Origin: Jimgerdemannia flammicorona
Lineage: Eukaryota
DNA length: 47,122 nucleotides
Assembly (NCBI GenBank): GCA_003990765.1
Contig: RBNJ01000048.1
Span: forward strand, 1-47,122
Direction: 5' to 3'
This document shows positions 8,590 through 40,108 of the stretch, piece after piece. The position numbers were made by a program, and so were the translations under genes. The notes under the pieces were generated by a model. The model searched no databases and had not been told where the DNA came from. It saw only the letters and a list, made by a program, of their open reading frames with translations. Each line of letters opens with the position of its first letter. The stretch's first letter is position 1.

Positions 8590-9786
8590 GTGAACCCCCT
8601 AAAATAGTCGCCCTCTACATTACGAATGTGTAATCTGCTTTACATTTTTCATCCTGCCACTATTTAACGATATCTATTGGAATAGTCTTTATAGGTATTG
8701 CTGTGCATCTTCCATCATATAAGGTAAATTATTGTTGTGCGGGTCTTGACAACGATGACCGCTCAGCTAATTAATTGTCGCTCAGCTGCCTGGCAGTTCA
8801 ACTAATCGACCGATTGTCACCCAACCAGCTCTGTTAATCGCCGATGGACAACCAATCGTTGCCCATTCCAATATTGCCATCCAAGAGTGAGGACGGGGGA
8901 AATCTCAGATTCAGGATTTGGTCCGCTTCGTATTTATTCTGGTATCCCGGTAATCGCCAGATGAGGAAGTGGAACACAACCCCACAATTAAGGTTGGTAT
9001 ACGTTATATTCGGAATGGTCCTAAATATCGTGGCTACTGGAATTAACGCGTTGGGAATAAAACTCCACCACCTTGTTCGTTGGGTCCGTCTCCTCTGCGA
9101 AAGATTGACCAGCACATACTCTTGAAACATACACATAGCTCAGGATGGTTCGTGGCATTTTGTTATATTGAAGCAATAACGTATATACGCCACATTCAGG
9201 ATGGTATATCATGCACGTGTATTGGATCTTTTTGCCCGACATCACATGCCAATTCCAATACTGGGCCAAGTGTAATGCCTGGGCGTAAAATTACCCCCAG
9301 GGGCTTTTTCCTTACGCCTTCGCTTACATTTCCCATTTTACATATTGCAATTGTATGTACGGGTCGGGTTTCGCCTGTTTTCTACCAAAGTACGAACAAT
9401 CTGGTTAATTGGGTGGAGGTGTTTCAGCCTTTCATGCATCGGATTTTCCAAGTTGATTACAACAAAACAAGCGTGACCTGGGAGAGCAAAAATCCGGAAT
9501 CCGGGCAAGTTAGATGCATCGGCTGACCAATGTGAGTTTATATCAAAATTTGGTCTCATAGTTGTATATACATTAGACACAAAGAGTAAAGTTTTTTAAG
9601 GAAAAGAGCTATTACTGGGAATGACGACTTGCTGATTTGGAAACAAAGCACTGGAAGTCAAATTATTCCCCTCGGGCACGACGGATATTCATGTCACACA
9701 ATAGACACTCGACCTTTGTCTACACAATCATTAGGCTTATAACCAACGCTTTTTAACCCACGACATATACTTCCTAAGAGCTTTCT

Positions 9787-11925: not shown

Positions 11926-12109
11926 TTTGTGTTTGGTCGCTGACGAAAGTGTTACTCGAAAGCGCAAGACAGAATTCATATAATAATAGCCAGTGATTTG
12001 CTGTCAAGAAAGTAAAACGTATCCATGTTTCCCCATATGCATGCAATGTAATTTACTCCAACCTTATTCCACGCAATGGCGCTATGCAGCCACATCACAA
12101 AAATAATTC

Positions 12110-15635: not shown

Positions 15636-17186
15636 TATTATATAGTGGTCACTAAGTTCTTCAAATATATCAGATTCTCTTCAAGATGTATCTCTTAGAC
15701 TAACTACAAGTTTGTTATAAGCAAGTTCTTATTGGAGTACCTTCTTAAGGTCTTATAGTCCTCAAACTTCTTATCTTTAAACTAATTATCTCTTAGATTG
15801 CTTATATAGAATTGAGTATAAGTGAACTTGACTGACTTTATTTTAAAGAACATAAGAGAGATATTTATATAAAATATAATTTAATAATTATTAAGATATA
15901 AAGCTAAATATAAATTCCAATAACCAAATAAAATACTAGAACATAGAAAACTTTGGTTGTAAGTACAAATTTGAGTACCTATATAAATGATTGCATAAGC
16001 TCAGGATATCAGTAGATTTTAGTGATACAGAAAAAGAATACTGGTAGAATTCAGTTATATATATAGAAAAAGGATGCCAGAAGATTTCAGTGTACTAAGA
16101 ACTTAGAGCAGAATATTCTAGACCATGGGGGCTTCATCTTTATCACTATCATCAAGACTAGAGGTTAGAGACAGGATGTCTTCAAAGGAAATGAGATTAG
16201 TGAATATTTCGTCTATTTCATATACTTCATGTATATTATCAATTAGTGAAATGATATTATTGCCAATGATGTCATCATGTTTGATAGTGATAAGGGCTCT
16301 CTAATCTATGACATTTTATTCCACAAAATAAGAAACAAATGTAGGATCTTGGGGAGACCTAACCTAAATGCTGAGACCTTAGAATACTGAGATCAATTCT
16401 TATAGGAATTGATCTGGATTGTCCTGGAGGATGGAATTCTAGAATTTTTCTACTTTATTACTATTAAGAGTGATAGTGGACTGGGCTTCTGTAGCCACTA
16501 TGGCTTTCAGTACATTGGTATAGTAGACTGACAATTTCTTGAAGTCTGAGACTCTGATATACTCTAAGTTGGGAATTGACTATAGTGTATATCTAAAGAC
16601 CTGATGAATTTTCTTAGCTATCTTTATTTCACATGCATCTATAGAAGTAGTATCTTGTATCTCTTGGGGACTAGCCTGAGAGAATTTCCAATAGAGGAGA
16701 TTTCTTATTTTGTATTCCTGTCATATCTAGAGATATTTAGTAGTAATAGTGATTCTTTTTTCTATTTCATGGCAGTAGAGAATTTAATTATAAGAGTTAC
16801 CAGTACCTAGGTTGAGACTAGGAGTCCTTCTTGTATAGGTCCTCATAGCTCTTCTGATATCTTGGAATATCCTTTCTTAGACTGAGAGGCCTTAGTGATT
16901 CCTGAATCTTGAGATTTGGTGAGCAGCAGGCATTTTATTTGTGATAAGTCTTTTGAACTATTTCTGTAAGCCTTGTTTGAGTTGCTGCTACTGTGGTTTC
17001 TTGATCCTTCTTTTATATTCCTTGAGATGTCTGTCTTGTAGTCATGATGACTCATAATTAGTCACTATTGCTCATCTTGTAGCCTGGGTGAGTTATACTA
17101 TATGATCTTCTTATACTCTAATCTGGTAGCTTGTAAGGAAAGGCTATCTCCTGTGATGATATCATTATTCTGAGGTTACCATTATA
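15636..17186 (-). repeat. Gypsy-A1 3' LTR (1551 bp)
   Basis: Direct repeat of 22834-24350, adjacent to the PPT. Confidence 0.9.
16103..16933 (-). pseudogene. Disrupted copy of the LTR-encoded ORF
   Basis: Starts ATG CCT GCT GCT CAC CAA (MPAAHQ) and ends NILL*. Homologous to 30077-30910, with internal stops. Confidence 0.85.
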
Positions 17187-17229
17187 TCTTCCTCCTGAAT
17201 AAGGATCTTCTCTTGAATATCTTTATTCA

Positions 17230-17488
17230 TTAGTCTAGTCTGAAAAATTTGCTAATCTTATAATCTCTGGCAGGGGGTCAAAAAGTGGTATTTATGAACT
17301 GGTGTCTCCTTATATATTTTGGCATAATGGTGAAGAATTACTCTCTTCATATAGAGCAAGGGCCTGATTCTGATCTTGACCAATCAGTTGATGGTTTGAA
17401 CTCCTCTAACTTTGAAAATCTCATGAATGAGTAGTTGCTGATACCATATCTCTTAGAGAATGGTCCAGACAGATTATCTGCTAGTTAT
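17230..17488 (-). pseudogene. Disrupted small ORF3 between integrase and PPT
   Basis: Homologous to 36794-37054. The start codon reads ATA. Confidence 0.5.
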
Positions 17489-17499
17489 GAGATATACTG

Positions 17500-20400
17500 T
17501 TATGATTCACAGACTAGAACCTCACAGGTAGTCATTATGTTTTACTTCTCTTATATAGGTTTATGGTACTTCTTAAGTCTATTCCTATATACTATAGTAG
17601 GCAGTATGATCTCTGAGAGTTTTCTAAGCCAGAAGGTAGTTCTATTGATATCTTGTACATAGAAGGGTCTTTCTCATTTGAGCTCCAGTTTTTGTGACCA
17701 TGAAGCTTCTACTATATTTTAATACAGTAGGACCTTTTCTCTGATTTGGATGAGTTCTAGAGTTTTGTAATTCTTTTCTATATTCTTCCTTATCAGTACT
17801 TGTGACTTGATGATATAATCTTCAGCCTTCTTTCTGATTTAGTATAGCCTCTAGATTTCTGAGTCAATCTATCTCTAAGTTAGATCTAGATTTGTAGCTG
17901 AGATTATATCAGAATCTTTTTCTCCAAAGAGCAGTTCTCTTGAAGTAAAGTGTATACTCTGTGACTATATATCTTGTAGAACAGAGAGGACAGTTGGGAG
18001 GTAGTTATCCTAATTATTATATATGTCTGAGATCTTTGCCAGAATGTTCTTAAAAGTCTTGTTGGTTCTTTCTGTTTATCTATTTCCTTAAGAGTGATAC
18101 ACAGTGGTCTTGATATACTGAATTTTATATTTCTGATATATTATCTTATGGAATCTATTGACAAATTCTGTACCATAGTCTGTGGTGATTTGTCTTGGTG
18201 TTTTGTAATGGCAGATGATTTCTTGGTACAGGAAGTCAGCTATAGAGAGAACATTGACTTCTTGTAATACTCCTACTTCTATTCATTTGGTAAAGAGGTC
18301 TAATATAGTGGTTTTCTGATAGTATTACTGGTAGTGGTCCAATAATATCTCTTGTGATGTAGTGGAAGGAGATAGGCTCAATTCTTGATGACCTGGGTGC
18401 CTGGTCTTACTGATCTTATTTCTGTTTTTAGTACTTATCACACCCTTTGACAAATTGGCACAGGTTTTCTTCTATCTTAGGCCACTACATGATTCTTCTT
18501 ATCTTGTTATATATATTGGTTCCTCTTAGATATTCTTGTTCATATACTTCCTTTATTACTTGATACTTCTTGTATTTGAATATTATAAGCTTTTCTCCTT
18601 TTCTGAGTATGGTATTGTCTAGTTCAAATTGTTTTCAAGTCCAGTTAATGATAGTGATAATTCAGAGTTTGAGGTGGTTGGGCATCTTTCACTATCTAAA
18701 GTAGCTGATTAATCCATAGTATAGCTCCTTATTTATATTGAATAGTCTTGATGAGAATGTTTCAGGATATCCTTGAGAGTGCATCAGTATTGATATTGGT
18801 TCTTTCTGAGTGATGCTTAACAGTATAGTTATACTCTTACAGTCTGTAGATCCATCTGGCATATATTTCTTTCAGACAAGAGCAGAGTAGTCTATTTGAA
18901 TAGTGAAGTATTTCTCAGCTAGATTGTAGTGAAACTTGTCTACTACTCAGACTACTGCTAAGCGTTTAAGCTTATATGACTCATAGTTCTGTTCTGCTTT
19001 GCAAGTATCTTAGTTTGTATAGGAGATGACATATTTATGTCTATCTTTCTTCTGAGCTAAGACTGCTCTAAGTTCTATAGTACTTACATCTGTCTGTAGA
19101 ATGAACTCTAAGTTCTAATCTGGTCTTCTGAGGATGGGTGCTTGGGTCAATCTGGTCTTGAGTTCATTGAATGTTTCTTGATATTCCTTAGTCCATTCAA
19201 ATTTAATCTCCTTCTTCAGTAGCTTATAGATAGATACTGCAGTATTGGAGTATCTTTTGATAAATCTTCTATAGTAGGAGACTAGTCTAAGGAAGGTGTA
19301 GACTTCTATAGTTGTTCTGGGTCTTGGGTAGGTTACAATAGCCTCAAAATTCATAGAGTCTATATAAATTCCAGTCTGGTTGATAATGTGTCCTAGGTAG
19401 GTGATTTCCTGAGCTACAAACTTACACTTCTTGGGCTTGATATAGAGATCATACTCCTTGAGCTTCTTGAGAGCTAGTTGTATATGGTTGACATATTCCT
19501 ATATAGTATTGCTGAAGATAATCACATCATCAATATAGATAAAGAGCTATTTTCCAATCTCATTACTGAAGCTCTATTTATAATTTGCAGAAAACTTACT
19601 GGAGCATTATATATTCCAAATGATATTTGCATATAGATATAAGTGATATCAGGTGTGATGAAGACTGATTCCTCACTAGCATCTTGAGTGAGACCAATCT
19701 GACAGAAGCCTGAGAACAGATCTAAGATAGTATAGTATTTGACTTTACTTCTAAAAGTGGTAAGGATTTCTTAGATATTTGGCAAGGACTGCTTATCTTT
19801 CTTGGTAATTGCATTGAGCTTCCTGTAATCAATACAGAGTCTTGGGGCAAACTCTCCAGGCTTGTTTTCTTTCTTTGGGGCAAGAACAATAGGTGAAGCC
19901 CAGGGGCTGATAGCTTGCTTGATGATTCCAGCTTCTTCTATTTCCTTGAGTTTGGCTTGCAGCTATTCTCTATAGGCAGGTGGTATAGATCTGGCTTTCT
20001 GATAGATGGGCTTGGTATTGCTAGTATCAACTTTATAGTAGTACTTAGGTTCTTGATTGTGGATGTCCCTGAAGTCTGTGGTAAGTACTTCTTTATTCTG
20101 ATATAAGATCTTGAGAAGTTGTTCTTCTTGGAGAAAGTTTTCTCCAATGATATATATATACTTGTTCTGATTCTTATATTTCTTGTGCTTGAGTTTAGTA
20201 ATCTTGATAGCAGCATAGACTCTTCTTCCAGTAGATCTAAAGCCTTGTTCTCCTCTCTTGGTCTTGATAAATTCAATGGCTTCAGTGATCTTAGACTTCT
20301 TGACTTCATGGATTAGCATCTGGCCAATCCTGTCATACTTCTTAACTTTGAATAGGGTGGTGGAGTTGTAATTCCTAACTATAAGGAAGATCTTACCAGT

Positions 20401-22707
20401 ATAATTAGGGTCAATTATTCCTCCTTTAACTGAGATTTCACTTTTGGCCAGACTGCTCCTGATCTTGATAATTCTGGTATAGTTCTCTGACAATTTGACT
20501 CCAATTCTAGTGCCAAGTAGAGTGGTGGTCTGTGGTTTGAGGATAGCATCTTGGATGTTAGCAAGATCTATTTCTATAGCTCCTTCAGTCTTATATTCTA
20601 GGATCTTGGCTTCAGAATGAAACTTCTTAACCTTGAGAGTAATGTCTAGTTCTTATTTCTCCTCATTACTATTAGCTTAAAGCTCTGGGGGCTGGTCATC
20701 TTTTTTGGCTTTTTTTTTTTACTTTAGCAACTTCTTACTTATACTTTTGTTAATGGATTTTCCTGACTTCACTGATATAGAACTAGCAGTCATTTAGGTG
20801 TTCAGAGTAATACATTCTAGTACTATGGGGGCATCTTTCTTGAGAGGCATAGCCATTGATGATCTCATTATACTACTGCTCATCTGTAAGCTTGGGTGTC
20901 TTGTTCTTATTCTTATATACTGAGTATATGAAGACTTCTGTATCCTCTTCATCTATGTCTAGTAGTACTCCTTTATGGATATTGATAGAGACTCATACCT
21001 TTCTTTCTCTATAGTTGATCTGCATCTTCTAGAAATTGAGGTCAATGATTACCTTGGCCTTATGGAACTATTGATTACTAATGAGGATATCATAGTTGGT
21101 ACCTATAATAATTATATTTACTAGGATGATAGCTCCTCTTATCTTGATGAGAACTTCTCAGATCTTGTCTAAGAGGGTAGCTTGTGTGCTATCTATTATA
21201 ACATAGACCATTTTGGTAGACTCTTCAATATCCTAGCCTAGGCAGTCAATTGTCTTCTTACTCATAAGACATCCTCCAGTACTAGTATTAATGATGACAT
21301 CAAAGATACAATCTTTAATCTGATATGGGGTATAGGCTGATATTTTGTGCTAGTCTTCAGATTCTTTATCTGAGTTCTCAGATTCTTCTTATATATTGTG
21401 AGCTTCTATAATCTTGTACTCTTAGTTCTTGATAGTAGTTGTAAGTCCTACTCTTAACTACTATCTGAAGACAGGAACTTTGGCTAGTTGTCTAAAAGTA
21501 GTATTGATCTTCTGTTCTTTAAGATCTTTGTAGATATCATACCAGTGGATCTTAGTCTTGCACAGCTTCTGTTCTTGCTTTCACTTTCTCCTGAGACTAG
21601 AGTAGTACCTTTAATAATTTGGTAAGTAGCTTCATCTAACTCTATATCTTGATCAATCTCCTCAAGTTGGGTCTTGCTTTGAATAGTAACAACTGGGGTC
21701 TTCTTTGGTCTTCCAACTGGCTTTCTGTTGCTCTTCTTATCATAGAGCTTGGACTGGGTTCTGGTATCTTCAGTAATAGGATAGAATTCAGACTCCTCAT
21801 AATATTCTTCATCATCAGTATTATCAATCTCCTCAATGACTACTGCATTGGTTTGTTCTCTAGTTCTAGTAGCATTACTTGGTGGGACTTTACATCTTGT
21901 TTCAGTCATACAACTCTTTGCATAGTGGCCTTCTTTTCCAAATCTTAAGCATGTGATATTATATTCTTCTATAGCAACTACAAATATCTATACTGGTCTC
22001 CTGTTGGTGCTTTGGACTTCTATAACAACATCACTAAGGTGTATAGTCATCTCAGCAAACTGCTTGGTGAGTTTCTCTACTGAGTTAGCTTTGGCTGCCT
22101 TGGGGGTAGGTGGGGATGGTTGTCTGTTAACAATTATAGTGAGTATAATACTAGTTGGTTTTTGTGACTCTATCTTAATATCAGTTATTTTCTCCATTGA
22201 GTGTTTGGTAGAGTATCTGATAGTTCAATATCTCTATGTAAAGACTACTTTCTGGTCAAGGATCAGAGCAGCTGAGATAGACCAGATTGCCAGGATAATT
22301 TCAGGATGATCTCCTTTAAGGAAGGTTGAATCAGCTATTTGATCCTTAAGGATATCATCATAGCCAGCCAAGACAATCTGGTGGCAGATTTAGATATAGA
22401 ATGAGTTAGGATCTTCACTGAGTCTGTGGCAGATAGTATTGAGTTGATCTTTGAGAGCTTGCTTGAACTCTTTAGTATAATATATAGTTCTGAGGAAGTT
22501 CTTCATATTGATAAGTTTGGCTACACCAGTATTAGCAATGGTGGCTATATTGAACTTGTCTCTGGCAGGTCCTCTGAGGCTGACTGGTAGAAGGGCCAAT
22601 TGTGCATCTATATTGAGGGCTTATATGGTGGCAAATTGTTCAAAGTCTTCAATAAAGATCAGGATTGACTCTTCAGTAGTATATCTATAGAATGTGGAGA
22701 GATACAT
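17500..22707 (-). pseudogene. gag-pol: Gypsy-A1 gag-pol (gag/CCHC, protease, dUTPase ~20227-20640, RT, RNase H, integrase), inactivated
   Basis: dUTPase RSSLAK..GGIIDPNYTG..RGEQGFRSTG, RT FIYIDDVIIFS, FLRLVSYYRRFI and APILRRPD. Many stops. Confidence 0.9.
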
Positions 22708-22833
22708 TTCTATTTTATCTTGAATTCTTACAGAGATAACTCTTGTAGTTAGAGTAGTTGTTATAGTAGTTATTTATTTTTTAACTTAAAAATAAGAGAT
22801 TCATCTTGAATTACCAGCCAATAGGCACTAAGT

Positions 22834-24350
22834 TGTTATATAGCAGTTGCTGAGTCCTTCAAATATATTAAATTCTCTTCAAGATATATCTCTTAGACTA
22901 ACTACAAGTTTGTTATAAGTAAGTTCTTATTGAATTGCCTTCACAAGGTCTTATAGTCCTCAAACTTCTTATCTTTAAACTATCTTATTATCTCTTAGAT
23001 TGCTTGCATAGAATTAAGTATAAGTAAACTTGACTGACTTTATTTTAAAAGAAATAAGAGAGGTATTTATACAAAATATAATTCAATAGTTGCTAAGATA
23101 TAAAGCTAAATATAAATTCCAATAACTAAATAAAATACTGGAATATAGAAAACTTCAGTTATAAGATAAATTCAAGTGTCTGTACAAATGGTTGCTTAAG
23201 TTCAGGATATCAGTAGATTTCAGTGATATAGAAAAAGAATATCAGAAGATTTCAGTGTTACCAAGAACTTAGAGCAGAATATTCAGGACTATGGGAGCTT
23301 CATCTTCATCACTATCATCAAGACTAGAGATTGGGAACAGAATGTCTTCAAAGGAAATGAGGTCAGCAAACATTTTGTCTATTTCATATACTTTATATAT
23401 GTCACCAATTAGCAGGATGACATCATCACCAATGATGTCATTATGTTCAGTAGTGGTGGGGGCTCTCTAATCTATAACATTCTCTTCTACAAAATAAGGA
23501 ACAAATGTGGGATCTTGGGGAGATCTAACCTAGATACTGGGGTCTTAGATTACTAAGATCAATCCTTAGAGGAATTGATCTGGATTGTTCTGAAGGATGG
23601 GATTCCAGAACTTTTCTACTTCATTACTATTGAGGGTAATGGTGGACTAGACTTCTGTGACCACTATGACTTCCAGTATATTGATATAGTGGGCTGACAA
23701 TTTCTTGAAGTCTGAGACTCTATATACTTCAAGTTGAGGATTGACCATAGTACATACCTAAAGACTTGATAAATCTTTTTAGCTATTTTTATTTTATATA
23801 TATCTATAGGAGTAGTATCTTATATCTCTTGGAGACTAGCTTGAGGGAATTCCTAGTAGAGAAGGTTTTCTTTTTCATATTCCTGCCATATCTAGAGATA
23901 TTTGGTAGTAATAGTAATCTTTATTTTCATTTTACAGCAATAGAGGATATAATTATAAGGGTCACCAGTACCTAGGTTGAGACTAGAAGTTCTTCTTATA
24001 TAGGTCCTTATAGCTTTTTTGATGTCTTGGAATATCCTTTCCTAGACTGAGGGGCCTTAGTGGTTCCTGGACCTTAAGGTTTGGCAAGTGGTAGGTATTT
24101 TATTTATATAAGTCTTTTGAACTATTTCTGTGAGTCTTGTTTAAGTTACTGCTACTGTGGTTTCTTAATTCTTCTTTTATATTCCTTGAGATATCTATTT
24201 TATAGTCATGATGACTCATAGTTGATCATTATTGCTCATCTTGTAGCCTGGGTAAGTTATGCTACATAATCTTCTTATACTCTAATCTGATAGCTTGTAA
24301 GGAAAGGCTATCTTCTGTAATAATATTATCATTCTGAGATCACCATTATA
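22834..24350 (-). repeat. Gypsy-A1 5' LTR (1517 bp), containing a disrupted LTR-ORF copy at 23269-24098
   Basis: Direct repeat of 15636-17186, followed in element orientation by ACT and the PBS. Confidence 0.9.
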
Positions 24351-26447: not shown

Positions 26448-29400
26448 AAGTTTATGAGCTCTGCTGGTACTAAGTAGCTATAGTAAATAAATACATCTCT
26501 TTAAAATACACTATACTAGAAATATCTGATAATTAGCTTAGTAATGTGAGCATAAAAATAGATATATCAATTATAAGCATTCCACCAACCATAGATGTAA
26601 CCACCTCTATAGATATAGGAAATACAGTTTCAGTTATTAGTATAAATATAGCCAAGAGGTCCATCTCAATCTTCAATAGAAAAGACTATACCATTTGAGT
26701 GTTTTATATAATAAATCTTCTTGATGAATATAGCTTAGTAAAATATATAAAGCTACAAGTACTAATTTAAGATTATAATATCACAAATGATTGCTGAGTA
26801 TTACAAAAGATCATATTCACATTATTGAATTCTCAGATAAAGCTCATAATGCACACTATGATAGCTTATGAGACATGGAAAGTCCTATGTAATTATCATA
26901 TATATACAAGCATTTATGTCAAATTGATTCCACCTGAAATCTCAGTTATTTAATCTTCAAATGAAGCTTAAGGAGAGCATCTATGAATATGCCTATCATA
27001 TTGACAATCTGGTGAATCAAGTGAATTCCCTCAGTATGTCTGCAGATTATAATAGAAATGAAGACAAGGTTATAGCACTCATAAGAGGACTTCCGGATGT
27101 ATATAATATTATAGTAGCAGTTATATATAAGAGCAGAAGACTCTCAGATTATCCTACATGATAACAAGCCTTATGAATGAGAAAATATATCAAGGAAATG
27201 GTGCTGATGATGATGAAAATATCTTTGATAGATCTTACAGATATAGTGCTAAACAAGAGAAGTGTGGACAATAAGGTCAAAGAAGATGAACCCAAACCCA
27301 AGCTCAACAATATAACAATCAGTCCAGCTAATCAACCAAGTATAATGGTTACTGTGAATACTATAGCAAGTATAGATATAGAAAGTACTATTATTATAGT
27401 TGGAAAAATGACAAGGAGAGTAGTAAAAATAAGTATGAAAAAAGCCAGTATTGGTAATATAGGAATGACAGAAAGAACTATCAAGAGAAGTATAGCAATG
27501 TAAATATTACTAAAACTAATGAAAGCAGTAATCTATTTTTTGTACAAGCTGCCAGTAATGCCAGTTCTGCCAGCATAAGATCTACTGTCAAATTCACCAA
27601 CCTATTATCTTTGAATTCTCATCAGTAAGACACTTTTGGACTGATAAAAAATAGTAATATCAATACTGCCAATAACTATATATTCTCTAAGTATACATCT
27701 GATAAATGCACCAATAATATAACTAATGACAATGATGTTTAGCTAATAGATTCTGGAGCAACATAATATATAATACCATACAGAGAATGGCTCTCTATAT
27801 ATAAGTCTTTCAAGCACTCTATACTTATTAAGTTAAGAGATAACAATATCATCTATATTCAAGAAAAAGAAAATATAGAGATATATCTCTATAGAAATAT
27901 CATTGAGCTCACTGCTACTTTTGTAACTATAATGTATACTCTAAAGATAGAAAAAAAACCTCTTCTCTATAGGCAAAATGATGACTTATAATAATATAGA
28001 GATTTATATATATTCAAAGAGTACTATAGTATACAATTTGCATGACAATGAGCTGATGATAGTTTTGAAATATAGTTATCTTTATATGATCAATAAGATA
28101 CTATATAGTATAAAAGCCTCTAATTATAACAATTACATCTGACATATTCAATATATAGTATTAATATTTAAGATATATTAGTAATATAAGCCTTAAATGT
28201 ATAATAAGAAGTGACTTATTAAGTGAATTGCCAGTATATATACATGAAGAGGATAAATTTTATGAGACATATAGAAAAGAAAGCTTCTCAATGCCTGTTC
28301 AAAGAATGATTAAAGCATATCTTAAGAATCCTTGATCTCATCTATACTGAAATATATAGTCTAATGCATACTTTATCATATTCTGGTAAGAGATATTTTT
28401 GAATGTTTATTGATAATCATATGTACAAGGTATATATATTTCCTATTGACAAAGAGCAAAGTCTTAGAGAAATTCAAAGAATTCAAAACAATTGCTGAGA
28501 ATGAAACAGGATATAGAATATATAATATATACTAGTTAATGGATATGAATATATCAATAATATATTCAGGCAATTCTTGATAAAATATGGTATAAGCCAT
28601 CAGATGATGACTCCTTATATACTTTAAGAAAATGGTATAGCTAAGCAATTTAACCATATGGCTATAGAAATAGTATATACATATAATAATCAATGTAGCT
28701 AGACTAGAATTTTCTATTGGGCCAAAGCCATCAACACAGCAGTATATATCTGCAACTGATATATACATATATTGATTACTAAGTAAGAAAGCTGGTCACA
28801 ATAAGTATAAGAACTCCTAAAGAATTATGGAGCAGATCCAAGCTGAATATATCTTATCTATATATATTTAATTATAAGACATACATCCTATCTAGTATAA
28901 ATTCAAGTCAAAGGCAGTTAAGCACATACTTCTAAGATATAGCAGAAAATCATATAGGCTCTAGAATCTATATATGAATTGTATGGTAATTTCACATAAT
29001 GTATAGTTCAGAGAAAAAGGAAATAATAAGGAGATCTATGTAGAAATATCAGTTAAAACAACCTTTACATCTCAGCTAGTAGAAATATAGCAATTAGTAC
29101 AACTGTCATCCATCTGTTCAGTAATAAATCAAAATTATTTTCAACTACTATATATATCTAAGCCTGAGTTAAGGATTACCAAGATCAAAGATGAAGATGA
29201 TAAATACAATGATAAAGAATCTTATACAAAGAGAAAATAATTACAAAAGTACTCTAATATATACTGAAAAATACTTTTAGAATTGAAAAGTTATTGGGAC
29301 ATACTAGTAAGCTCTAGACACCAGCAATATTAAGACTATATAAGCTATACTGAAGCATATAAATATACATATATTATACATCTTTCAGTAAGCCAAGCAT

Positions 29401-29952
29401 ATATGACAAGACAATACAATATCTCAATAATAAGAAATAGCAATGCATAATAGATGAGAAGTATGATTCACTCATTAAAAATAATATATGAGATCTAGTA
29501 TCTCTTTTACCAAACTGTCAAGCAATTAGATCCAAGTGAGTGTATAGAATAATACATAATACTGATAGCAATATAGAGCAGTATAAAGCTTATTTTGTTA
29601 TCAAGGATTATTTGTAGAATTATAGTATAGACAATAACAAAACATTTTTACTAGTATTTAAGCTTACTTTACTTAAAATACTCCTTGTGAATTGTGTAGT
29701 ATATAATCTCAAAATCTATCAAATAGATATAAAGACAGTATTTCTGAATAGTGATGTAAATACTGAACTATATATCTATCAACCACAAAGATATAAAAAT
29801 AGTGAGCTCATATACAGATTATATAAAAGACTATTGTAACAGTGACCCCAGAATGATGACATCAGTACAGGAGACAGTCTTTTCTTGCAAGCCATCAGAT
29901 CAGAGCACAAGAAGATCATATGGCATATGAGATGAGTGATGATGACCAACTG

Positions 29953-29996
29953 TGAGTCATTGTGACCACAGTTCAGATATCTTGAGGAATATAAAA
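29953..29996 (+). promoter_or_regulatory. Putative promoter of the LTR ORF: AP-1/Gcn4-type TGAGTCA (29953-29959) and TATAAAA (29990-29996)
   Basis: Both motifs are retained at the same place in all four LTRs (ATGAGTCAT in three), ~80-125 bp upstream of an A-rich ACAAAATG start. Confidence 0.55.
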
Positions 29997-30076
29997 GAAG
30001 GATCAAGAAACTACAGTAGTAGCAACCAACAAGACTCACCAATCCCAAAATAGCTCAAAGACTTACCACAAACAAA

Positions 30077-30910
30077 ATGCCTGCTGCTCACCAAACCTCA
30101 AGGTCAAGAAACTACCAAGGTATCTCAGTTGAAGAAAAGATGTTCCAAGACATCAGAAGAGCCATGAGGATCCACTTAAGAAGGACTCCTAGTGTCAACC
30201 TGGATACTGCACATCCTTATCACTTTATTCTCTACCATCATGAAATGGAAACAAGGATCACTATTGCTACCAAATGCCTCCAAATGTGGCAGGAGTACAA
30301 AATAGGAAACCTCCTCTGTCAAGAGGTCTTACAGGCCAGCACTCAAGAGCTACAAGATGCCACTCCTATAGATATATATGAAACAAGAACAGCTGAGAAG
30401 ATCTATCAGATCTTCAGACATGCACCATGGTTGATCCCCAACTTGGAGTATGTTAGAGTCTCAGATTTTAGAGACCTGTCATCCTGCCATATCAATGCAC
30501 TAGAAGCCAAGGTGGCAACAGAGGCCCAGTCCACTATCACCCTCAATAGTGATGAAGTAGAAGACTTCTGGCATCCCATTCTCCAGAACAACCCAGATCA
30601 ATTCCTACAAGGATTGATCTCAGTATTCCAAGGCCCAAGCATTCAGGTTAGACCTCCCCAAGACCCCACATTTGTTCCCTATTTTGTGGAAGAGAACCTC
30701 ATAGACTGGAGAGCTCCAGATCTCCTTGTTCTCACCACTGCCACTGCTGAATATAATGATGTCATCAGTAATAATGTCATCCTACACAACATCAAAGTAT
30801 ATAAAACATGCAACTTATGTAATGGTGACAAATTCACAGACCTTATCTCCTTTGAAGACATCCTGACCTCTGATGATAAAGCCCCTATAGTCTTGAACAT
30901 TCTGCTCTAA
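30077..30910 (+). CDS. Intact 277-aa protein of unknown function encoded entirely within the LTR (U3)
   Basis: ATG-to-TAA open frame with homologous disrupted copies in the other three LTRs. Basic N-terminus, acidic C-terminal half, no obvious signal peptide or transmembrane segment. Confidence 0.8.
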   Translation: MPAAHQTSRSRNYQGISVEEKMFQDIRRAMRIHLRRTPSVNLDTAHPYHFILYHHEMETRITIATKCLQMWQEYKIGNLLCQEVLQASTQELQDATPIDIYETRTAEKIYQIFRHAPWLIPNLEYVRVSDFRDLSSCHINALEAKVATEAQSTITLNSDEVEDFWHPILQNNPDQFLQGLISVFQGPSIQVRPPQDPTFVPYFVEENLIDWRAPDLLVLTTATAEYNDVISNNVILHNIKVYKTCNLCNGDKFTDLISFEDILTSDDKAPIVLNILL

Positions 30911-30922
30911 GTCTCTTAGTTA

Positions 30923-31045
30923 TACTGAATAATGCCAGCACTAGCATTTTGATATAATACTGAATAATACCAGCATTGGCATTTTGATGTAATACTGAAT
31001 AATGCTAGCACTGGCATTTTGATGTAATACTGGATTATACCAGTA
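30923..31045 (+). repeat. 35-bp tandem repeat (3 copies plus a partial) in U3, enhancer-like
   Basis: Unit TACTGAATAATGCCAGCACTGGCATTTTGATRTAA. The 3' LTR has only 2 full copies (38184-38253). Confidence 0.85.
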
Positions 31046-31172
31046 TCCTGAACCTGAACAACCATCAGTGCTGACTCTGGAACTTAGCAGTTTTTCCTGT
31101 CCTGGCATTTTATTTTAGTTATTGGAATTTATATTTAGCTTTATATCTTAGCAATCATTGAATTATATTTTG

Positions 31173-31205
31173 TATAAATACTCCTCTTATTTCCTCTGAA
31201 ATAAA
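31173..31205 (+). promoter_or_regulatory. Putative main LTR TATA box (TATAAATA 31173-31180) and poly(A) signal (AATAAA 31200-31205)
   Basis: The motif pair lies ~210-240 bp from the LTR end and is present in the other LTR copies. Confidence 0.5.
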
Positions 31206-31416
31206 GTCTGTCAACTCAGTGCAATACACACACTTCCTTGCAAACAATCTAAGAGATAACAAGACAGTTTAAAAGATAAGAAGTTTGAGAACTATAAGAT
31301 CTTAGGAAGATACTCCAATAAGAACTTGCTTATAACAAACTTGAGTTAGTCTAAGAGATACACCTTGAAGAGAATCTGGTATATTTGAAGGACTCAGCAA
31401 CCACTATGTGACAACT

Positions 31417-31433
31417 TGGTACCCATTGGCTGG
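31417..31433 (+). promoter_or_regulatory. Gypsy-A primer-binding site (tRNA not identified)
   Basis: TGGTACCCATTGGCTGG lies 3 nt after the LTR. The other copy reads TAGTGCCTATTGGCTGG. Confidence 0.7.
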
Positions 31434-31539
31434 TAATTCAAGATGAATTCCTCACTTTCAAGCTGAAAAATTAACAACCTCCACAACAACTACCCTGACT
31501 ACAAGAGTCACTCCTGCAAGAATTTAAGATAAGATAGAA

Positions 31540-34500
31540 ATATATCTCCCCACATTTTATAGATATACTACTGAAGAGTCAATCCTGATCTTTATTGAAG
31601 ACTTTGAACAATTCACTGCCATATGAGCCCTTGGTATGGATGTACAATTGGCCCTTCTATCAGTCAGCCTCAGAGAACCTGCCAGAGACATATTCAATGC
31701 AGCCACTATTGCTGATAATGATGCAGCCAAACTTGCCAATATAAAGGCCTTCCTCAGAACAACATACTATACTGAAGAGATCAAGCAAGCTCTCAAGGAT
31801 CAACTCAATACTATCTACTAGAGACTTAGTAAAGATCCCAACTTATTCTATATCTGAATCTGCCACCAGATTGTCTTGGCTAGCTATGATGATGCCCTCA
31901 AGGAACAAATAGCAGATTCAATCTTTCTTAAAGGAGGTCATCCTAAAATTGCCCTAGCAATCTGGTCTACCCTAGCTGCACTAACCCTTAATCAGAAAGT
32001 GGTCTTTGTATAGAGATATTGGACTGCCAGACACCCTGCTGAATACTCAATGGAGAAAATAACTGGTATCAAGATAGAGTCATCAAAGCCAACTAGTATT
32101 ATATCTGCTATAGTTGTAAACAGACAACCAACCCTACCTACCTCCAAGGCAGCCAAAGCTGACCCAGTGGAGGAACTTGCCAAGCAGTTCACTGAGATGA
32201 CTGCACACCTTGGTGATGTTGTTAGAGAAGTCCAAAGTGCCAACAAGAGACCAGTGTAGAGATTTGCAGCTGCTACAGAAGAATACAATATGTATCACAT
32301 ACTTCAGATGTAGAGAAGAAGGCCACTATGCAAAGAATTGCATGACCAAAACAAGATGCAAAGCCCAACCAAGCAATGCTAGCAGAACCAGAGAACAAAC
32401 CAATACAGTAGTTATTGAGGAGATTGATGATACTGATGATGAATAATACTACAAGGAGCTCAAATTCTACCCTGCTACTGACAATACCAGAACTCGGTCC
32501 AAGCCCTATGACAGGAAGAGCAACAGTAAGCCAGTTGGAAGACCAAAGAAGACCCAGCTGTCACTATTCAAAGTAAGACTCAATTTAAGGAGATTGATCA
32601 AGATATGGAGTTAGATAAAGCTGCCTGCCAAATCATTAAAGGTACTACTCCAGTCTTAGGAGAAAGTGAAAGTAAGAAGGAATAGAAGCTGCACAAGACT
32701 AAGATCCACCAGTATGATATCTACAAGGATCTTAAGGAACAGAAGATCAATGCTACTTTTGGACAGCTAGCTGAAGTCAGATAGCAGTTGAGAGTAGGAC
32801 TTGCAACTACTGCCAAACAAGATTGTAGAAGCTCACAATGTATAGAAAGAATCCAAAAACTCAGATGAAGAATCTGAAGACCAGCACAAGACATCAGCCT
32901 ATACCCCATGTCAGATCAAAGACTGTATCTTTGATACCATCATTAATATCAGTGCTGGAGGATGCCTCATGAGCAAGAAGGCAATTGACCACCTAGGTTG
33001 GGACATTGAAGAGTCCACCAAGATGATCTATATTATAGCAGATGGTATATGAGCTACCCCTCTTGGCAAAATCTGAGAAGTCCCCATCAAGATAAGAGGA
33101 GCTACTATCTCAGTAGACATGATTGCTATAAGTGTCACCAACTATAACATCCTCATTAGCAACTAATAGCTTCACAAGGCCAAGGCCATCATTGACCTCA
33201 ATGCCCAGAAGATACAGATCAACTATAGAGGAAGAAAGGTATAAGTCTCTATAAATATCTATAAAGGAGTTCTACCAGACATGGAGGAAGGAGATGAAGA
33301 GGACACAGAGGTCTTTATGCACTCAGTGAACAAGAATAAGAACAAGACACCCAAGCTCACAGGTGAGCAGTGGTACAATAAGATCATTGATAGCTATGTC
33401 CCTCAAGGAAGATGCCCCCATGGTACTAGGATGTACTGCTCTGAACACCTGAATAACTGCTAGTCCTGTATCAGTAAAGTTAGGAAAATCAACCAACAGA
33501 AATATGAGCAAGAAGCTGCTGAAGCAAAAAAGAAAGCTAAAGAAGATGACTAGCCCCCTGAGTTTCAGGCTGACAGTGATGAGGAGGAACAAGAACCAGA
33601 TATCACCCTCAAGATTGAGAAGTTCAACCCTAAAATCAAGATCCCAGAATACAAGACTGAAGGAGCTATAGGAATGGACCTTGCCAGCATTCAAGATGCT
33701 ACCCTCAAACCACAGACCACCACTCTACTTAACACTGGAATTGAAGTCAAGCTGCCAGAGAACTATGCCAGAATTATCAAGACTAGGAGTAGTCTGGCCA
33801 AGAGTGAAATCTCAGTTGAAGGAGGAGTAATTGACCCTGATTACACTGGTGAGATCTTCCTTATAGTCAGAAATTACAACTCTACCACCCTATTTGAAGT
33901 CAAGAAGCATGACAGGATTGGCCAGATACTGATCCACGAAATCAAGAAACCCAAGATCATTGAAGCTATCAAACTCATCAAGACCAAGAGAGAAGAACAA
34001 GGTTTTGGATCTACTGGAAGAGGAGCCTATGCTGCCACCAAGATTACCAAACTTGAACATAAGAAAGATAAGGACCAGAATAAGCACACATATACTATTG
34101 GAGAAAACTTTCCCCTGGAAGAACAACTTCTCAAGATCTTATACTAGAATGACAGAGTACTTACTACTGACTTCAGAGATATCTATAATCAAGAACCCAA
34201 GTACTTCCATGAAGTTGACTCTAGTAATACCAAGCCTATCTACCAGAAGGCCAGACTCATACCACCTGTCTACAGAGAATGACTGTGAGCAGAACTCAAG
34301 GAAATGGAAGAAGCCAAAATCATCAAGCAAGCTATCAGTCCCTGGGCTTCATCCATTGTCCTTGCCCCAAAAAAGGAAGCAAGCCTAGAGAGTTTGCACC
34401 AAGACTCTGTATTGACTATAGGAAGCTCAATATCATTACTAAGAAAGATAGGCAGCCCTTGCCAAATATTCAAAAAATTCTTACCACTCTTGGAAGCAAA

Positions 34501-36782
34501 GCCAAATACTACACCACCTTGGATCTGTTCTCAGGCTTCCATCAGATTGGTCTCACTTAAGATGCCAGTGAGAAATCAACCTTCATCATACCTGACACCA
34601 CCTATATCTACTTGCAAATGCCATTTGGAATATGCAATGCCCCAGTAAGTTTTCAGCAAATGATGAACAGAGTCTTCAGTAATGAGATTGGAAAATAGCT
34701 CTTTATCTATGTTGATGATGTAATCATCTTCAGCAATACTATATAGGAATATATCAATCATATACAGCTAGTCCTCAAGAAGCTCAAGAAGCATGGCCTT
34801 TACTTCAAGCCCAAGAAATATAAGTTTGCAGCTCAAGAAATCGCCTATCTAGGACACCTCATCAACCAGACTAGAATCCATACAGACCTTATGAAGATTG
34901 AGGTTGTTGTAGCCTACCTGAGACCCAGAATAACTACAGAAATCCATGCCTTCCTTAGACTGGTCAGCTACTACAGAAGATTTATCAAAGGATATTTCAA
35001 CATTGTAGTACCTATCTATGAGCTACTGAAGAAGAAAACCAAATTCAAATGGACCAAGAAGTACCAAGAAACCTTCAATGAACTTAAGATCAGGTTGATC
35101 CAAGCACCTATCCTCAGAAGACCAGATTGGAATCTAGAATTCATCCTGCAGACAGATGTAAGTACTATAGGACTTGGAGCAGTCCTAGCTCAGAAAAAAG
35201 ATGGACATGAATATGTCATCTCCTATATAAGCTAAGGTATCTATGGAGTAGAACAGAACTATGAGTCATATAAACTCGAATACTTAGCAGTAGTTTGGAC
35301 AGTAGACAAGTTCCACTACTATCTAGCTGGGAAACACTTCACCATTCAAACAGACCATTCTGCTCTTACCTGGCTATTCCACACTCTGAACCCCAAAGGA
35401 ATATATGCCAGATGAATCTACAGGCTACAAGAGTATGACTGTACTGTCAAGTATCACTCAGAAAGAACCAACACTAATACTGATATACTCTCAAGGACAC
35501 TCTAAAACACCCCCATCAAGACTATTTAATATAAATAAGGAGCTATATTATGGATTAATCAGCTACCTTGGGCAGTGGAAGATGTCCAACCACCTTGAAC
35601 CCTGGACAATTACCATCATCAATCAGACTTGGAAACAGTTTGAACTAGACAACACTATACTCAGAAAAGGAGAAAAGCTAGTAATACCCAAACACAAGAA
35701 GTATCAAGTAATGAAGGAAGTATATGAGCAAGGATACCTAGGAGGAACCAATACATATGATAAGGTAAGAAGAACCATATGGTGGCCCAAGATAGAAGAA
35801 GACCTGTGCCAATTTGTCAAAGAGTGTGACAAGAGTGCCCAAAACAGAAACAAGATCAGCAAGACCAGGCACCTGAGTCATCAAGAATTGAGCCTATCCC
35901 CTTCCACCACATCATAATAGATATCATTGGGCCACTATCAGTGATACTATCAGGAAACTACTACATCATAGTTATTGTAGATCTCTTTACCAAATAGATA
36001 GAAGCAGGAGCATTACAAGAAGCCAATGCCCTCTCTATAGCTGACTTCCTACACCAAGAAATCATCTGCTACTACAAAACACCAAAGCAAATCACAACAG
36101 ACTGTAGTACAGAATTTGTCAATAGATTCCATGAGATAATATATCAGAAATATAAGATCCAGCACATCAAGACCACTACATACCACCCTCTAGGAAATAG
36201 ACAGACAGAGAGAACCAACAAGACCCTCAAGAACATCCTGACAAAGATCTTAGAGACATATGAGAATTGGGATAATTATCTCCCAACTGCTCTCTCTGTC
36301 CTATGAGATATATAGTTATAGAGCACACACTTTACCCCAAGGGAACTGCTCTTCAGAGAAGAAGATTCTGATGGAACCTTAGCTATAAATCTAGACCTAA
36401 CTTGGAGATAGGTTGATGCAGAAATCTGGAGACTACACCAAATCAGAAAGAAGGTTGAAGATTACATCATCAAGTCATAGATACTGATAAGGAAGAATGT
36501 GGAAAAGAATCACAAGACTCTAGAACTCATCCAAATTGGAGAAAAGGTCCTACTATATTTAAATATGATAGAAGCCTCATAGTTGCGAAAACTGGAGTCT
36601 AAATGGAAAGGACTCTTCTATGTGCAAGATATCAAAAAAAAACTACCTTCTGGTTTAGAAAAATCTCAGAGACCATACTGCCTACCACAGTATATAGGAA
36701 CAGACTCAAGAAGTACTATGAACCTATACAAGAGAAGCAAAATGTGATGACCACCCATGAGGTTCTAGTCTATGAATCATAA
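31540..36782 (+). pseudogene. gag-pol: Gypsy-A2 gag-pol polyprotein, inactivated by stops and frameshifts
   Basis: Zn knuckle FRCREEGHYAKNC, protease IINISAGG, RT SPWASSIVLAPKK / RLCIDYRKLN / MPFGICNAP / YVDD (34708-34719), RNase H LQTDVSTIGLGAVLAQ, integrase core and a GPY/F-like KWKGLFYV. No chromodomain. Confidence 0.93.
33608..34018 (+). other. dut: dUTPase domain between protease and RT, with no internal stop
   Basis: All five trimeric dUTPase motifs are visible: AIGMDL, RSSLA, GVIDPDYTGEI, DRIGQ and EQGFGSTG. Confidence 0.93.
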
Positions 36783-36793
36783 CAGTATATCCC

Positions 36794-37054
36794 ATGACCA
36801 GCAGGCTATCTGTCTAGACTATTCTCTAAGAAATATGGCACCAGCAACTACTCATCTATGAGACTTTCAAAGCCAGAGGAGTTTGAACCATCAACTGATT
36901 GGTCAAGATCAGAATCAGGCCCTTGCTTTATATAAAGGGAGCAACTCTTTACCATCATGCCAAAATACAAAGAGAAGACACTAGTCCATAAATACCACTT
37001 TTTGACCCCTTGCCAGAGGTTATGAGATCAGCAAATTTTTCAGGACTAGACTAA
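36794..37054 (+). pseudogene. Small ORF3 (87 codons including the stop) between the pol stop and the PPT, reconstructed
   Basis: ATG lies 11 nt after the pol stop. The five internal stops are each single transitions from TGG/CAA/CGA, and the other copy has sense codons at two of them. Confidence 0.55.
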
Positions 37055-37096
37055 TGAATAAGGATGCTCAAGAAGATCCCTTATTTAGGAGGAAGA

Positions 37097-38639
37097 TGTA
37101 ATAGTGACCCCAGAATGATGACATCAGCACAGGAGACAGTCTTTCCTTACAAGCCACCAGATCAGAGCACAAGAAGATCATATGGCATATGAGATGAGCA
37201 ATGATGACCAACTATGAGTCATTATGACCATAGTTCAGATATCTTGAGGAATATAAAAGAAGGATCAAGAAACTGCAGTAGTAGCAACCAATAAGACCCA
37301 CTAATCCCAAAATAGCTCAAAGACTTACCATAAACAAAATGCCTGCTGCTCACCAAACCTTAAGGTCAAGGAATTACCAAGGCATCTCAGTCAAAGAAAG
37401 GATGTTCCAAGACATCAGAAGAGCCATGAGGACCTACTCAAGAAGGACTCCTAGTGTCAACCTAGGTACTGCAGATCCTTATCAGTTTATCCTCTATTAC
37501 TATAAAATGGAAACAAGGATCACTATTACTACTGAATGTCTCCAAATGTGACAGGAGTATAAAATAGAAAACCTCCTCTATCAGAAGTTCCCACAGACCA
37601 GCACTCAAGAGCTATAAGATATCACTCTCATAGATATATGTAAAACAAGAACAGCTAAGAAGATCTATCAGATCTTCAGGCATACACCATGATTGATCCC
37701 CAACTTGGAGTATGTTAGAGTCTCAGATTTCAGAGACCTGTCATCTCACCATATTAATGTACTAGAAGCCAGGGTGGCTACAGAGGCCCAGTCTACTATC
37801 ACCCTCAATAGTGATGAAGTAGAAGACTTCTGGCATTCCATTCTCCAGAATAACTCAGATCAATTCCTGCAAGGATTGATCTCAGTATTTCAAGGCCCAA
37901 GCATCTAGATTAGACCTCCCCAAGATCCCACATTTATTCTTTATTTTGTGGAAGAGAATCTATAGACTGGAGAGCTCCAGATCTTCTTGTTCCTGCTACC
38001 GCCACTGCTAAACATGATGACATCGTCAGTGATAACATCATCCCACATGATATTGAAGTATGTGAAATACACAACCTATGTGATGATGATGAATTCATGG
38101 ACCTCATCTCCTTTGAAGACATTCTGACCTCTGATGATGAAGCTCCTATAGTCTTGAACATTCTGCTCTAAGTCCCTTGGTTATACTGAATAATACTAGT
38201 ACCAGCATTTTGATATAATACTGAATAATGCCAGTACTGGTATTTTGATATAACACTGAATTATATCAGTATCCTGAACCTCTACAACCATCAGTGCTGA
38301 CCCTGGAACTTAATAGTTTTTCCTATCCCAGCATTTTATTTTAGTTATTGGAATTTATATTTAACTTTATATCTTAGCAACTATTGAATTATATTTTATA
38401 TAAATACTCCTCTTATTTCTTCTGAAATAAAGTCAGTTAACTTAGTACAATATATATACTTCCTTGCAAGCAATCTAAGAGATAATAAAACAGTTTAAAA
38501 GATAAGAAGTTTGAGGACTATAAGACCTTGGAAAGGCACTCCAATAAGAACTTACTTATAACAAACTTGAGTTAGTCTAAGAGATACACCTTGAAGAGAA
38601 TCTGATATATTTGAAGAACTCAGTGACCACTACATAACA
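37097..38639 (+). repeat. Gypsy-A2 3' LTR (1543 bp), with a disrupted LTR-ORF copy at 37339-38171
   Basis: Follows the PPT AGGAGGAAGA. It is 36 bp shorter than the 5' LTR, accounted for by one 35-bp unit plus a 1-bp deletion in the ORF. Confidence 0.93.
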
Positions 38640-40108
38640 CTATATAGCATTAAGCAAGCAATACAACTATGGAATAAAAGAATCAATAAGCATCTACTTG
38701 ATAATAGATTCATATATTATGAAGTGGATAATTGTATATATATCTAGTATTATAATGATAGTATAGTATTCATTAATATATAGATTGATAACATTATTAT
38801 CATTATCAGCAAGAATAGACTTAATAGAATTAAAAAAGCTCTATGCTGAGAATTCAAGATGACTAATATGGGCAATATATGCTTCCTTTTAGAGATATCT
38901 ATTATATATGACAGAAATATACATACTATATATATATCTCTTATAAGAAAATTACACTAAAGTCATTCTCAAATGCTTTAATATGAGTGAATACAAGCCT
39001 GTTAGCACTCCAATGGAGACTTCTGTGAAATTAAGAAAGCCCAACAATATGTTCAAAGATAATGATAATATACCACCAAGAGTACTGCCACCAATATTCC
39101 CTATAGACAAGTAGTTGGTTTTCTTATATATCTTATACTTGGAATGAGGCCCAACATATCCTATATTGTCAATAAAGTAGTACAGTATTGCTCATACTAT
39201 GACAACTTGTACTGGTTGGCAATCAAGAGGATTTTCAGATATTTAAAGAGATCAGCATAATATATACTCACATGGATAATAATATTGGATTGAGTAGAAG
39301 TAATGGTAAGAGTAATAGTATTCAGCTATCTAGTGTATATAATGCTGATTGGGCTGAAGACTTGGATGACTACCAGTCTATAATCAGATATCTCTTTCAC
39401 ATTAGTGAAAATAACAAAGGAGTTATCTTATAGCAAATATATAAGCAATTATTTTTAGTAATATCATCAATATAGGTAGAGTACCAGATATTGTCATTGG
39501 TAACAAAGAAAGTTATTTGACTCCATAAGCTTTTAAAAGAACTCAGATTTACTCAGAAAAGTACTATTCTATACTAGGATAATCAGTCTATAATTGTACT
39601 TACTAAGAATCCAGTATATTATAGCAGAATAAAACATATTGATATATAGTATTATTTTATATATGAATATATAGAAAATAGTGCTATATACTTAGAATAT
39701 ATCTCCACAGAGTGTATAGTTGCAGACTCATTGACCAAAGTCCTTCCAAAGCTAAAGTTCAAGCAATATACTAAAAAAATAGGTCTTATAAGCTATATAC
39801 TAGTATTTGATTGATTATAAGACATTTTTAGACTGTTAAAGCCTCTCATACTATATATATATTGGTTATATCTCACATCTTATCTGGAGGATTATATATA
39901 TTATATTCTCCATGTACTTCATCTATAGATATTTTGGATATTTTGAGTATATTTCAGAATACTTTTCAACCTATAAAAATTTCTTAAATATAGAATTTTA
40001 TATAGTAAATTGGGTTGTATATATTTCTAATTTTATATATATTATGTATTATTTTTATTCTAGTTTACATTCTCTATTTTTTTTATTATATATCTTATTA
40101 AGTAAAAG

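Follow-up and report, generated by a model that had tools for sequence, protein, structure and literature searches.

Can the long terminal repeat (LTR) of a retrotransposon carry a complete protein-coding gene of its own? Retrotransposon LTRs are treated as non-coding control regions, and accessory genes inside LTRs are textbook matter only for a few vertebrate retroviruses. The question is raised by positions 1 to 47,122 of contig RBNJ01000048.1 (the window, that is, the whole 47,122-bp stretch of DNA that was analysed; 35% GC), which contains two decayed Ty3/gypsy elements, A and B. An open reading frame (ORF) of 277 codons, P0001, is found in the 5' LTR of element A, and remnants of the same frame are found in the three other LTRs. 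Together with a family of database proteins related to P0001, this arrangement suggests that the frame is probably the fossil of a genuine accessory gene, which was located inside the LTR of an old, probably fungal, dUTPase-bearing Ty3/gypsy lineage.

A coding frame in four LTRs and its protein family

The elements, their LTRs and the components of the LTR cassette are located as follows:

29835-38639 (+): element A, with an LTR pair that is 87% identical
29835-31413 (+): 5' LTR of A, 1579 bp, TG..CA (blastn and alignment)
37097-38639 (+): 3' LTR of A, 1543 bp (blastn and alignment)
15636-24350 (-): element B, with an LTR pair
22834-24350 (-): 5' LTR of B, 1517 bp (blastn and alignment)
15636-17186 (-): 3' LTR of B, 1551 bp (blastn and alignment)
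29953-29959 (+): TGAGTCA, a bZIP/AP-1/Gcn4-type word, at the same position in 4/4 LTRs
29990-29996 (+): first TATA box, TATAAAA, 81 bp upstream of the ATG, in 4/4 LTRs
30077-30910 (+): LTR-borne ORF P0001, 277 codons and a stop, the sole open copy
30922-31043 (+): 35-bp tandem repeat, 3.5 units, in the would-be 3' untranslated region (UTR)
31173-31179 (+): second TATA box, TATAAAT, in 4/4 LTRs
31200-31205 (+): AATAAA poly(A) signal, 27 bp past the second TATA box, in 4/4 LTRs
37339-38168 (+): ORF remnant in the 3' LTR of A, with 4 stops and a 1-bp deletion
23272-24098 (-): ORF remnant in the 5' LTR of B, with 10 stops, a 1-bp deletion and ATG changed to ATA
16106-16933 (-): ORF remnant in the 3' LTR of B, with 13 stops

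The LTR copies were located by blastn of the reported stretch against the window, and their bounds were taken from a four-way alignment. In this way the four copies of ~1.5 kb that a first-pass annotation of this DNA had claimed were all recovered (1517-1579 bp), and TG..CA ends are present in both A and B. The series of motifs claimed for each LTR was found as well: the alignment places TGAGTCA, TATAAAA, the coding frame, the 35-bp repeats, the second TATA box and AATAAA in this order in all four LTRs, with TGAGTCA, both TATA boxes and AATAAA each present in 4/4, while the tandem repeat, which has 3.5 units in the 5' LTR of A, is shorter or diverged in the other three. The ORF begins 242 bp inside the LTR start and stops 503 bp short of the LTR end, and in both diverged elements it is located wholly within the LTR and not in the internal region. 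As read directly in the 5' LTR of A, there is no ATG between the first TATAAAA and the ORF start, and the ATG of the ORF is retained in three of the four LTRs, the 5' LTR of B having ATA instead. The further claim that each LTR holds an ORF of ~277 codons stands only in part, since a remnant of the frame is present in 4/4 LTRs, but only in the 5' LTR of A is it open. The stop-free run in this LTR (295 codons) is beyond chance: the best of 2000 Markov-simulated LTRs had a run of 210 codons, short of the 277 of the ORF.

About 13 database proteins match the ORF with 24-81% identity, and they form at least three subgroups. A word-indexed search of 5.8 billion proteins yielded five relatives with 64-78% identity by BLASTP, one of which is full length (271 aa), and an exhaustive hidden Markov model (HMM) search of 1.84 billion cluster representatives yielded five clusters, among them proteins with 214 aa (42% identity), 342 aa (33%) and 200 aa (25%). 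A profile search yielded 12 proteins, one of them of 325 aa at 29% identity; all 12 stem from jgi or ena records, with none from NCBI or UniRef, and none has a Pfam domain. The full-length members of all three subgroups share the N-terminus MP(A/P)..R..QT(S/A), the family has the blocks HQ(I/V)F.H.P, the FWNPILQDNPDQ(F/W)LQ region and F(Q/E)GP.I in common, and 16 columns are invariant over eight aligned family sequences. Frames of 271-342 codons that are open at such divergence need selection. Judged by these comparisons, the LTR frame is a genuine gene, coding for a protein of the element family, and the ORF family is, by the same measure, a small orphan protein family that stays open with its motifs kept down to ~24% identity.

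When metagenome contigs and viral contigs were searched with the family alignment, no related loci were found. A search with the Pol homologue P0013 led to three distant gypsy loci with 38-42% identity; within reach of these loci neither an LTR pair nor a convincing ORF relative was found, and the best match had an E-value of 0.002 over 39 aa. Residues 101-160 of the family member P0006, which make up its aberrant C-terminus, are the reverse complement of its own ORF end as in the B LTRs, which probably goes back to a source contig with a hairpin or inverted repeat. P0034 differs from P0033 by R>H, R>C and R>W replacements, the CpG-decay signature that is also seen in the window copy, suggesting that ORF copies of other genomes are also located in decaying repeat DNA.

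Possible expression and function of the LTR gene

In the proposed mechanism, the genomic RNA would start just past the second TATA box (31173), at or beyond AATAAA (31200), so that the second TATA box would be the likely promoter of the genomic RNA. The resulting layout would comprise a unique 3' region (U3) of ~1.37 kb with the ORF inside, a very short repeated region (R) and a unique 5' region (U5) of ~190 bp. The poly(A) signal would then be read solely in the 3' LTR, and the ORF would ride at the 3' end of the genomic RNA. Since reverse transcription copies U3 from the RNA 3' end to both DNA ends, each insertion would carry two copies of the gene. Alternatively, the first TATA box (29990) could drive the genomic RNA, in which case the ORF would be part of an R region of ~1.2 kb, as the first cistron, and would be present at both RNA ends. 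This layout is consistent with TGAGTCA and TATAAAA being at a fixed position in 4/4 LTRs and with the first ATG beyond the first TATA box being the ORF start, and no sequence feature forbids it. However, it needs a bypass of the 5' AATAAA, and in all four LTRs the second TATA box is placed 27 bp before AATAAA, in keeping with the common arrangement in which a short R and a poly(A) site follow the promoter. Furthermore, an R region of 1.2 kb and a gag located behind an upstream cistron of 834 nt are both unusual for LTR elements, and we consider this layout unlikely.

If the ORF is part of U3, the TGAGTCA-TATAAAA pair could drive an LTR-contained mRNA of ~1.2 kb that ends at the shared AATAAA, with a leader of ~55 nt, the ORF start as first AUG and a 3' UTR of ~300 nt; an alternative transcript would be a spliced 3'-coterminal mRNA. 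The word TGAGTCA occurs nine times in the window compared to 8.2 expected, and only its fixed position in the LTR is notable. Both the placement of the ORF in U3 and the private promoter are what we infer from the order of these motifs. The gene would most likely have entered the LTR by a shift of plus-strand priming to a position upstream of a 3' accessory ORF.

The encoded protein would be acidic and soluble. Its N-terminus would be basic and its middle part helical, and a conserved Pro-rich block and an acidic-hydrophobic tail would follow. The family protein is acidic overall (pI 4.5-5.2), with a net-positive charge over the first 60 residues and a net-negative charge in the second half, in agreement with the basic N-terminus and acidic tail described in the first-pass annotation. 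Its view that the protein is not env-like is borne out by the highest 19-aa hydropathy window, which is 0.68 (0.59-0.74 across the four family members examined); in the absence of a membrane-type hydrophobic stretch the protein is neither env-like nor Sag-like. The structure check it had proposed, by AlphaFold and Foldseek, was carried out and gave low-confidence models and no fold match: two AlphaFold runs led to unreliable models with a mean predicted local distance difference test score (pLDDT) of 34.8 and 42.9, and Foldseek against the PDB at E<=0.001 returned no matches for this low-confidence query model. In the same low-confidence models, helices are predicted at approximately residues 18-185, followed by the conserved Pro-rich block PPQDPTFVPYFVEEN.IDWRAPD, and the tail beyond this block reads DLISFEDI..(S/D/E)n..AP..LNFLL. 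Pfam at E<=1 gave no family apart from one noise hit, a PDB sequence search at E<=5 gave no relative, and the best score in the protein atlas was 0.85 (bacterial clusters), which is under the lead level of 0.9. A possible origin of the ORF as a piece of gag-pol was rejected, the comparison by hhalign with two full dUTPase-gypsy polyproteins having a probability of <1%. Because of the basic head and the acidic-hydrophobic tail, the product might have been a nuclear adaptor or transactivator serving the element; this is a guess and the weakest step of the proposal, and we regard it as doubtful.

The closest analogue of this arrangement is the sag gene of mouse mammary tumour virus (MMTV), in layout and not in descent. 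In both cases a complete ORF of ~300 codons is located in an LTR of more than 1 kb and is doubled at each integration; in MMTV, R is short and closely preceded by the poly(A) signal, and U3 contains an additional promoter. Unlike sag, the ORF described here has no sequence or family match to Sag (Pfam, PDB) and no membrane-type segment, and its carrier is an env-less, probably fungal Ty3/gypsy element, whereas MMTV is a vertebrate betaretrovirus. In the case of nef of human and simian immunodeficiency viruses (HIV/SIV) and bel/bet of foamy viruses, a 3'-terminal accessory gene overlaps U3, and foamy viruses have a second promoter. These genes merely overlap U3, whereas here the LTR encloses the entire ORF together with the putative promoter, and no homology of the ORF to nef or bel/bet products was detected. 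Kinship with Sag, Nef or Bel proteins was likewise not found by Pfam, PDB or Foldseek.

Among retrotransposons, additional ORFs (aORFs) have been described for Athila/Bagy2 (env-like), Grande, RIRE2, Retand and Boty, which are family-wide, without a known function and without outside relatives, and which are located internally to the LTRs, in most cases in the interval from pol to the 3' LTR (parts of PMC7264820). The ORF resembles them as an extra ORF, present here in 4/4 LTRs of two elements, and differs from them by being located within the LTR and not in the internal region; the covered parts of the text of PMC7264820 contain no passage on ORFs in the LTR. The dUTPase, which the first-pass annotation had counted among the signs of novelty, has to be given up as such, since dUTPase beside the reverse transcriptase (RT) of fungal gypsy elements is already in print: dUTPase between protease and RT is described for gypsy elements of basidiomycetes (Phanerochaete, Postia) and of bdelloid rotifers (passages of PMC2864245 and PMC5408684). 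These elements share with A and B the backbone of gag, dUTPase, RT, RNase H and integrase, and the dUTPase-gypsy passages of the two papers do not mention an LTR-borne ORF. Similarly, in 'LTR Retrotransposons in Fungi' (PMC3248453) no passage was found that deals with long LTRs, LTR ORFs or dUTPase. A phrase search of the open-access literature returned papers on MMTV and other retroviruses or unrelated uses, and no retrotransposon with an LTR-resident ORF, although publication elsewhere is possible. What may be new is an accessory gene of retroviral style carried in the LTR of a probably fungal retrotransposon; the dUTPase and the 4-bp target-site duplication are known features.

A conserved protein family in the LTR of a fungal Ty3/gypsy element would, if true, mean that this layout arose independently in retrotransposons and that solo LTRs can have a coding afterlife, and it would add an orphan protein family to the transposon accessory factors (transcription, targeting, anti-silencing). 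It would also be possible, and is put forward here tentatively, that the elements represent a 'complex' fungal Ty3/gypsy lineage, in which a nuclear regulator would be encoded within U3 by a self-contained gene with its own bZIP site and TATA box, an ORF at the first AUG and a shared poly(A) signal. In this case, every LTR, solo ones that arose by recombination included, would be an autonomous protein-coding unit able to act in trans on further copies of the element, which would be the equivalent, among retrotransposons, of sag in MMTV or tas in foamy viruses. For annotation, the locus is a warning that real genes can hide in long fungal LTRs.

Selection, decay and the remaining alternatives

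The evidence for selection within the window is weaker than the evidence from the family and points in the same direction. The three indels between A and B inside the ORF (-21, -6 and +24 bp) are all in frame, for which the chance is 0.037, and the two copy-private indels inside the ORF are each a 1-bp frameshift. Among the codons on which the two LTRs of an element agree, in A as well as in B, there are 28 single transitions; 12 of them are non-synonymous, as compared to 62-68% expected (P 0.005-0.03). The Nei-Gojobori dN/dS ratio was dropped as a test, as it is 0.30-0.39 for every pair, including the LTRs of one element, for which neutrality is expected, and this uniformity is due to transition bias.

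Several observations weigh against a conserved LTR-borne gene with its own promoter and a function for the element. The residence of the ORF family in LTRs was observed in two elements of one window. TATA-type motifs are AT-rich and have few mutable C/G sites, so that their conservation across decayed copies is weak evidence, and the unreliable structure models leave the functional guess without structural support. When compared to the terminal branches, the deficit of non-synonymous changes is not significant (Fisher P 0.09), and the internal-branch transversions (10/5/7) lack an excess at third positions. The transversion divergence between A and B is 4.1-4.6% in the ORF, 0.5-1.8% in gag-pol segments and 5.4-7.5% in the non-coding LTR tail, that is, the ORF diverges ~2-9 times as much as gag-pol and is close to the LTR tail, indicating weak constraint between A and B. 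This fast divergence means that the protein either changes rapidly, which is common among accessory proteins, or was needed only loosely. Finally, seven stops are common to both LTRs of B. The ORF of B may already have been dead at insertion, so that the gene would be dispensable in cis; alternatively, C>T changes may have produced the common stops in parallel, as can be demonstrated for codons 71, 93 and 190.

The much faster evolution of the ORF relative to gag-pol and the seven common stops in B would also be expected for a cellular gene or retrogene that one lineage took up into its LTR by transduction and that decays there as cargo without a role for the element, and the cassette does resemble a complete gene with TATA box, ORF and 3' UTR. 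However, the ORF is shared by A and B, between which the LTRs have diverged by ~25%, and it belongs to a family of at least three subgroups with frames still open at 24-42% identity. Its 12 profile matches, confined as they are to jgi and ena records, include no annotated relative and no Pfam domain, the homologue P0034 shows (relative to P0033) the R>C/W/H decay typical of methylated repeats, and the flanks of the cassette have neither a poly(A) tract nor an internal duplication. The capture of a host gene is, on balance, improbable.

An accessory gene of the element, as favoured here, would be represented in the window by dead copies. All 2-kb bins of transposon DNA have a CpG observed/expected ratio of 0.00-0.05 and the four LTRs one of 0.00-0.04, compared to 0.8-1.2 in the host-gene bins at 6-12 kb, and the GC content is 21-42% in transposon DNA versus 46-54% in the gene-bearing bins (6001-12000). 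The differences between the LTRs are overwhelmingly C>T and G>A. Codon 190 is TAG in the 3' LTR of A and in both LTRs of B, whereas it encodes Q in the 5' LTR of A and in all homologues, and codons 71 and 93 have likewise been hit independently in different copies. This pattern points to repeat-targeted cytosine methylation followed by deamination, or to a process resembling repeat-induced point mutation (RIP). The open frame is affected as well: P0001 deviates at 17 of 162 columns in which the close homologues are unanimous, and 13 of these deviations (R>H, R>C, H>Y, E>K etc.) correspond to a single C>T or G>A in the window DNA; H110Y falls in the near-invariant IHQ motif. In a neutral simulation with random C>T/G>A changes, the frame was still open in 23% of the trials with 20 hits and in 10% of those with 30 hits, so that one open frame among four copies needs no selection. 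All ORF copies in the window are dead and the open frame is a mutated relic, and thus nothing suggests present activity at the locus, which is only a fossil and has its value as a pointer to the family, not to the window copy.

These data also bear on the proposal that host selection has kept the frame at 30077-30910 open, turning it into a gene of the host. It is the sole open copy among the four, and the 5' LTR of A is the least decayed, with 39.3% GC versus 32-37% in the other LTRs. Nevertheless, the CpG observed/expected ratio of this very LTR is 0.00, its 13 C>T/G>A missense changes are private where the close homologues agree, and without selection a copy keeps its frame open in 10-23% of cases. 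Moreover, between the 5' and 3' LTRs of A the share of non-synonymous changes is 40/71, near the neutral 62-68%, and such a domestication is highly improbable. A chance frame or annotation artefact, with homologues that are gene-caller noise on repeats, could appeal to the fact that gene callers output open frames only, leaving broken copies invisible, and to the weakness of the selection signals inside the window, but it is close to refuted by the simulated LTRs, in which 277 codons were never reached, by frames of 271, 325 and 342 aa that are open at 24-70% identity with motifs and start in common, and by the in-frame A/B indels.

The two elements and their surroundings

The remaining features of the two elements are:

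29831-29834: target-site duplication CTAT of A, left copy, read in the sequence
38640-38643: target-site duplication CTAT of A, right copy, read in the sequence
31414-37096 (+): internal region of A, degenerate, with Pfam matches on frame fragments
31417-31433 (+): primer-binding-site-like stretch of A, TGGTACCCATTGGCTGG, with a similar stretch in B
32201-32443 (+): gag zinc knuckle of A (Pfam)
33554-34144 (+): dUTPase of A (Pfam)
37087-37096 (+): polypurine tract of A, AGGAGGAAGA, with an identical tract in B
17187-22833 (-): internal region of B, degenerate, with a dUTPase at 19966-20652

The target-site duplication of element B is ATAC and thus also 4 bp long, a length that is ordinary for some gypsy elements. 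The stretches resembling a primer-binding site begin with TGG and are located 3 nt past the 5' LTR in both A and B, and no tRNA genes were found in the window. AGGAGGAAGA is found immediately upstream of the 3' LTR in both elements. In the interior of A, the Pfam domains follow the order gag zinc knuckle, dUTPase, RT, RNase H, integrase zinc domain and integrase core, and the dUTPase (PF00692) is located upstream of RT with an E-value of 6e-28 in A and 9e-21 in B. The order RT-RNase H-integrase in pol, together with the LTR pair, target-site duplication, primer-binding site and polypurine tract, identifies the elements as Ty3/gypsy. No long ORFs survive in the interiors of A and B, and no Pfam match to a protease was found among their frame fragments. 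The nearest Pol fragment in the databases (P0013) is 86% identical, and the next one 40%.

The ~800 bp that separate the integrase core from the 3' LTR (36301-37096 in A, and the counterpart in B) have 85% identity between A and B; this segment is conserved like pol, has no Pfam match and corresponds to the ORF3 of the first-pass annotation. The LTRs of A and B are several times more diverged than the interiors, with 1.7-7.5% transversions as compared to 0.5-1.8% in gag-pol, and the contrast would be explained either by a much faster evolution of the LTRs or by the acquisition of LTRs through recombination with a distant relative.

Element A is nested in a Ty1/copia element, of which a gag is located at 26928-27158. 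A copia RT (RVT_2, E 1e-9) at 29618-29833 comprises 72 codons and abuts the insertion point of A, and the copia reading frame apparently resumes past the right CTAT (38644 onward). Another copia-type gag fragment (Retrotran_gag_2, E 8.5e-6) is found at 1928-2167 within a stretch of 24-25% GC. No Rfam families were found in the window. A fungal host would fit the intron-free host ORFs of 46-54% GC next to CpG-erased repeats, the mostly fungal atlas clusters nearest to one of these ORFs and the dUTPase-gypsy type of A and B. Two host ORFs are both intron-free: the one at 6742-8589 (-) encodes 615 aa with a weak ankyrin match below the Pfam cut-off, and the one at 9787-11925 (+) encodes a TPR and SET-domain protein of 712 aa, whose nearest atlas clusters are mostly fungal.

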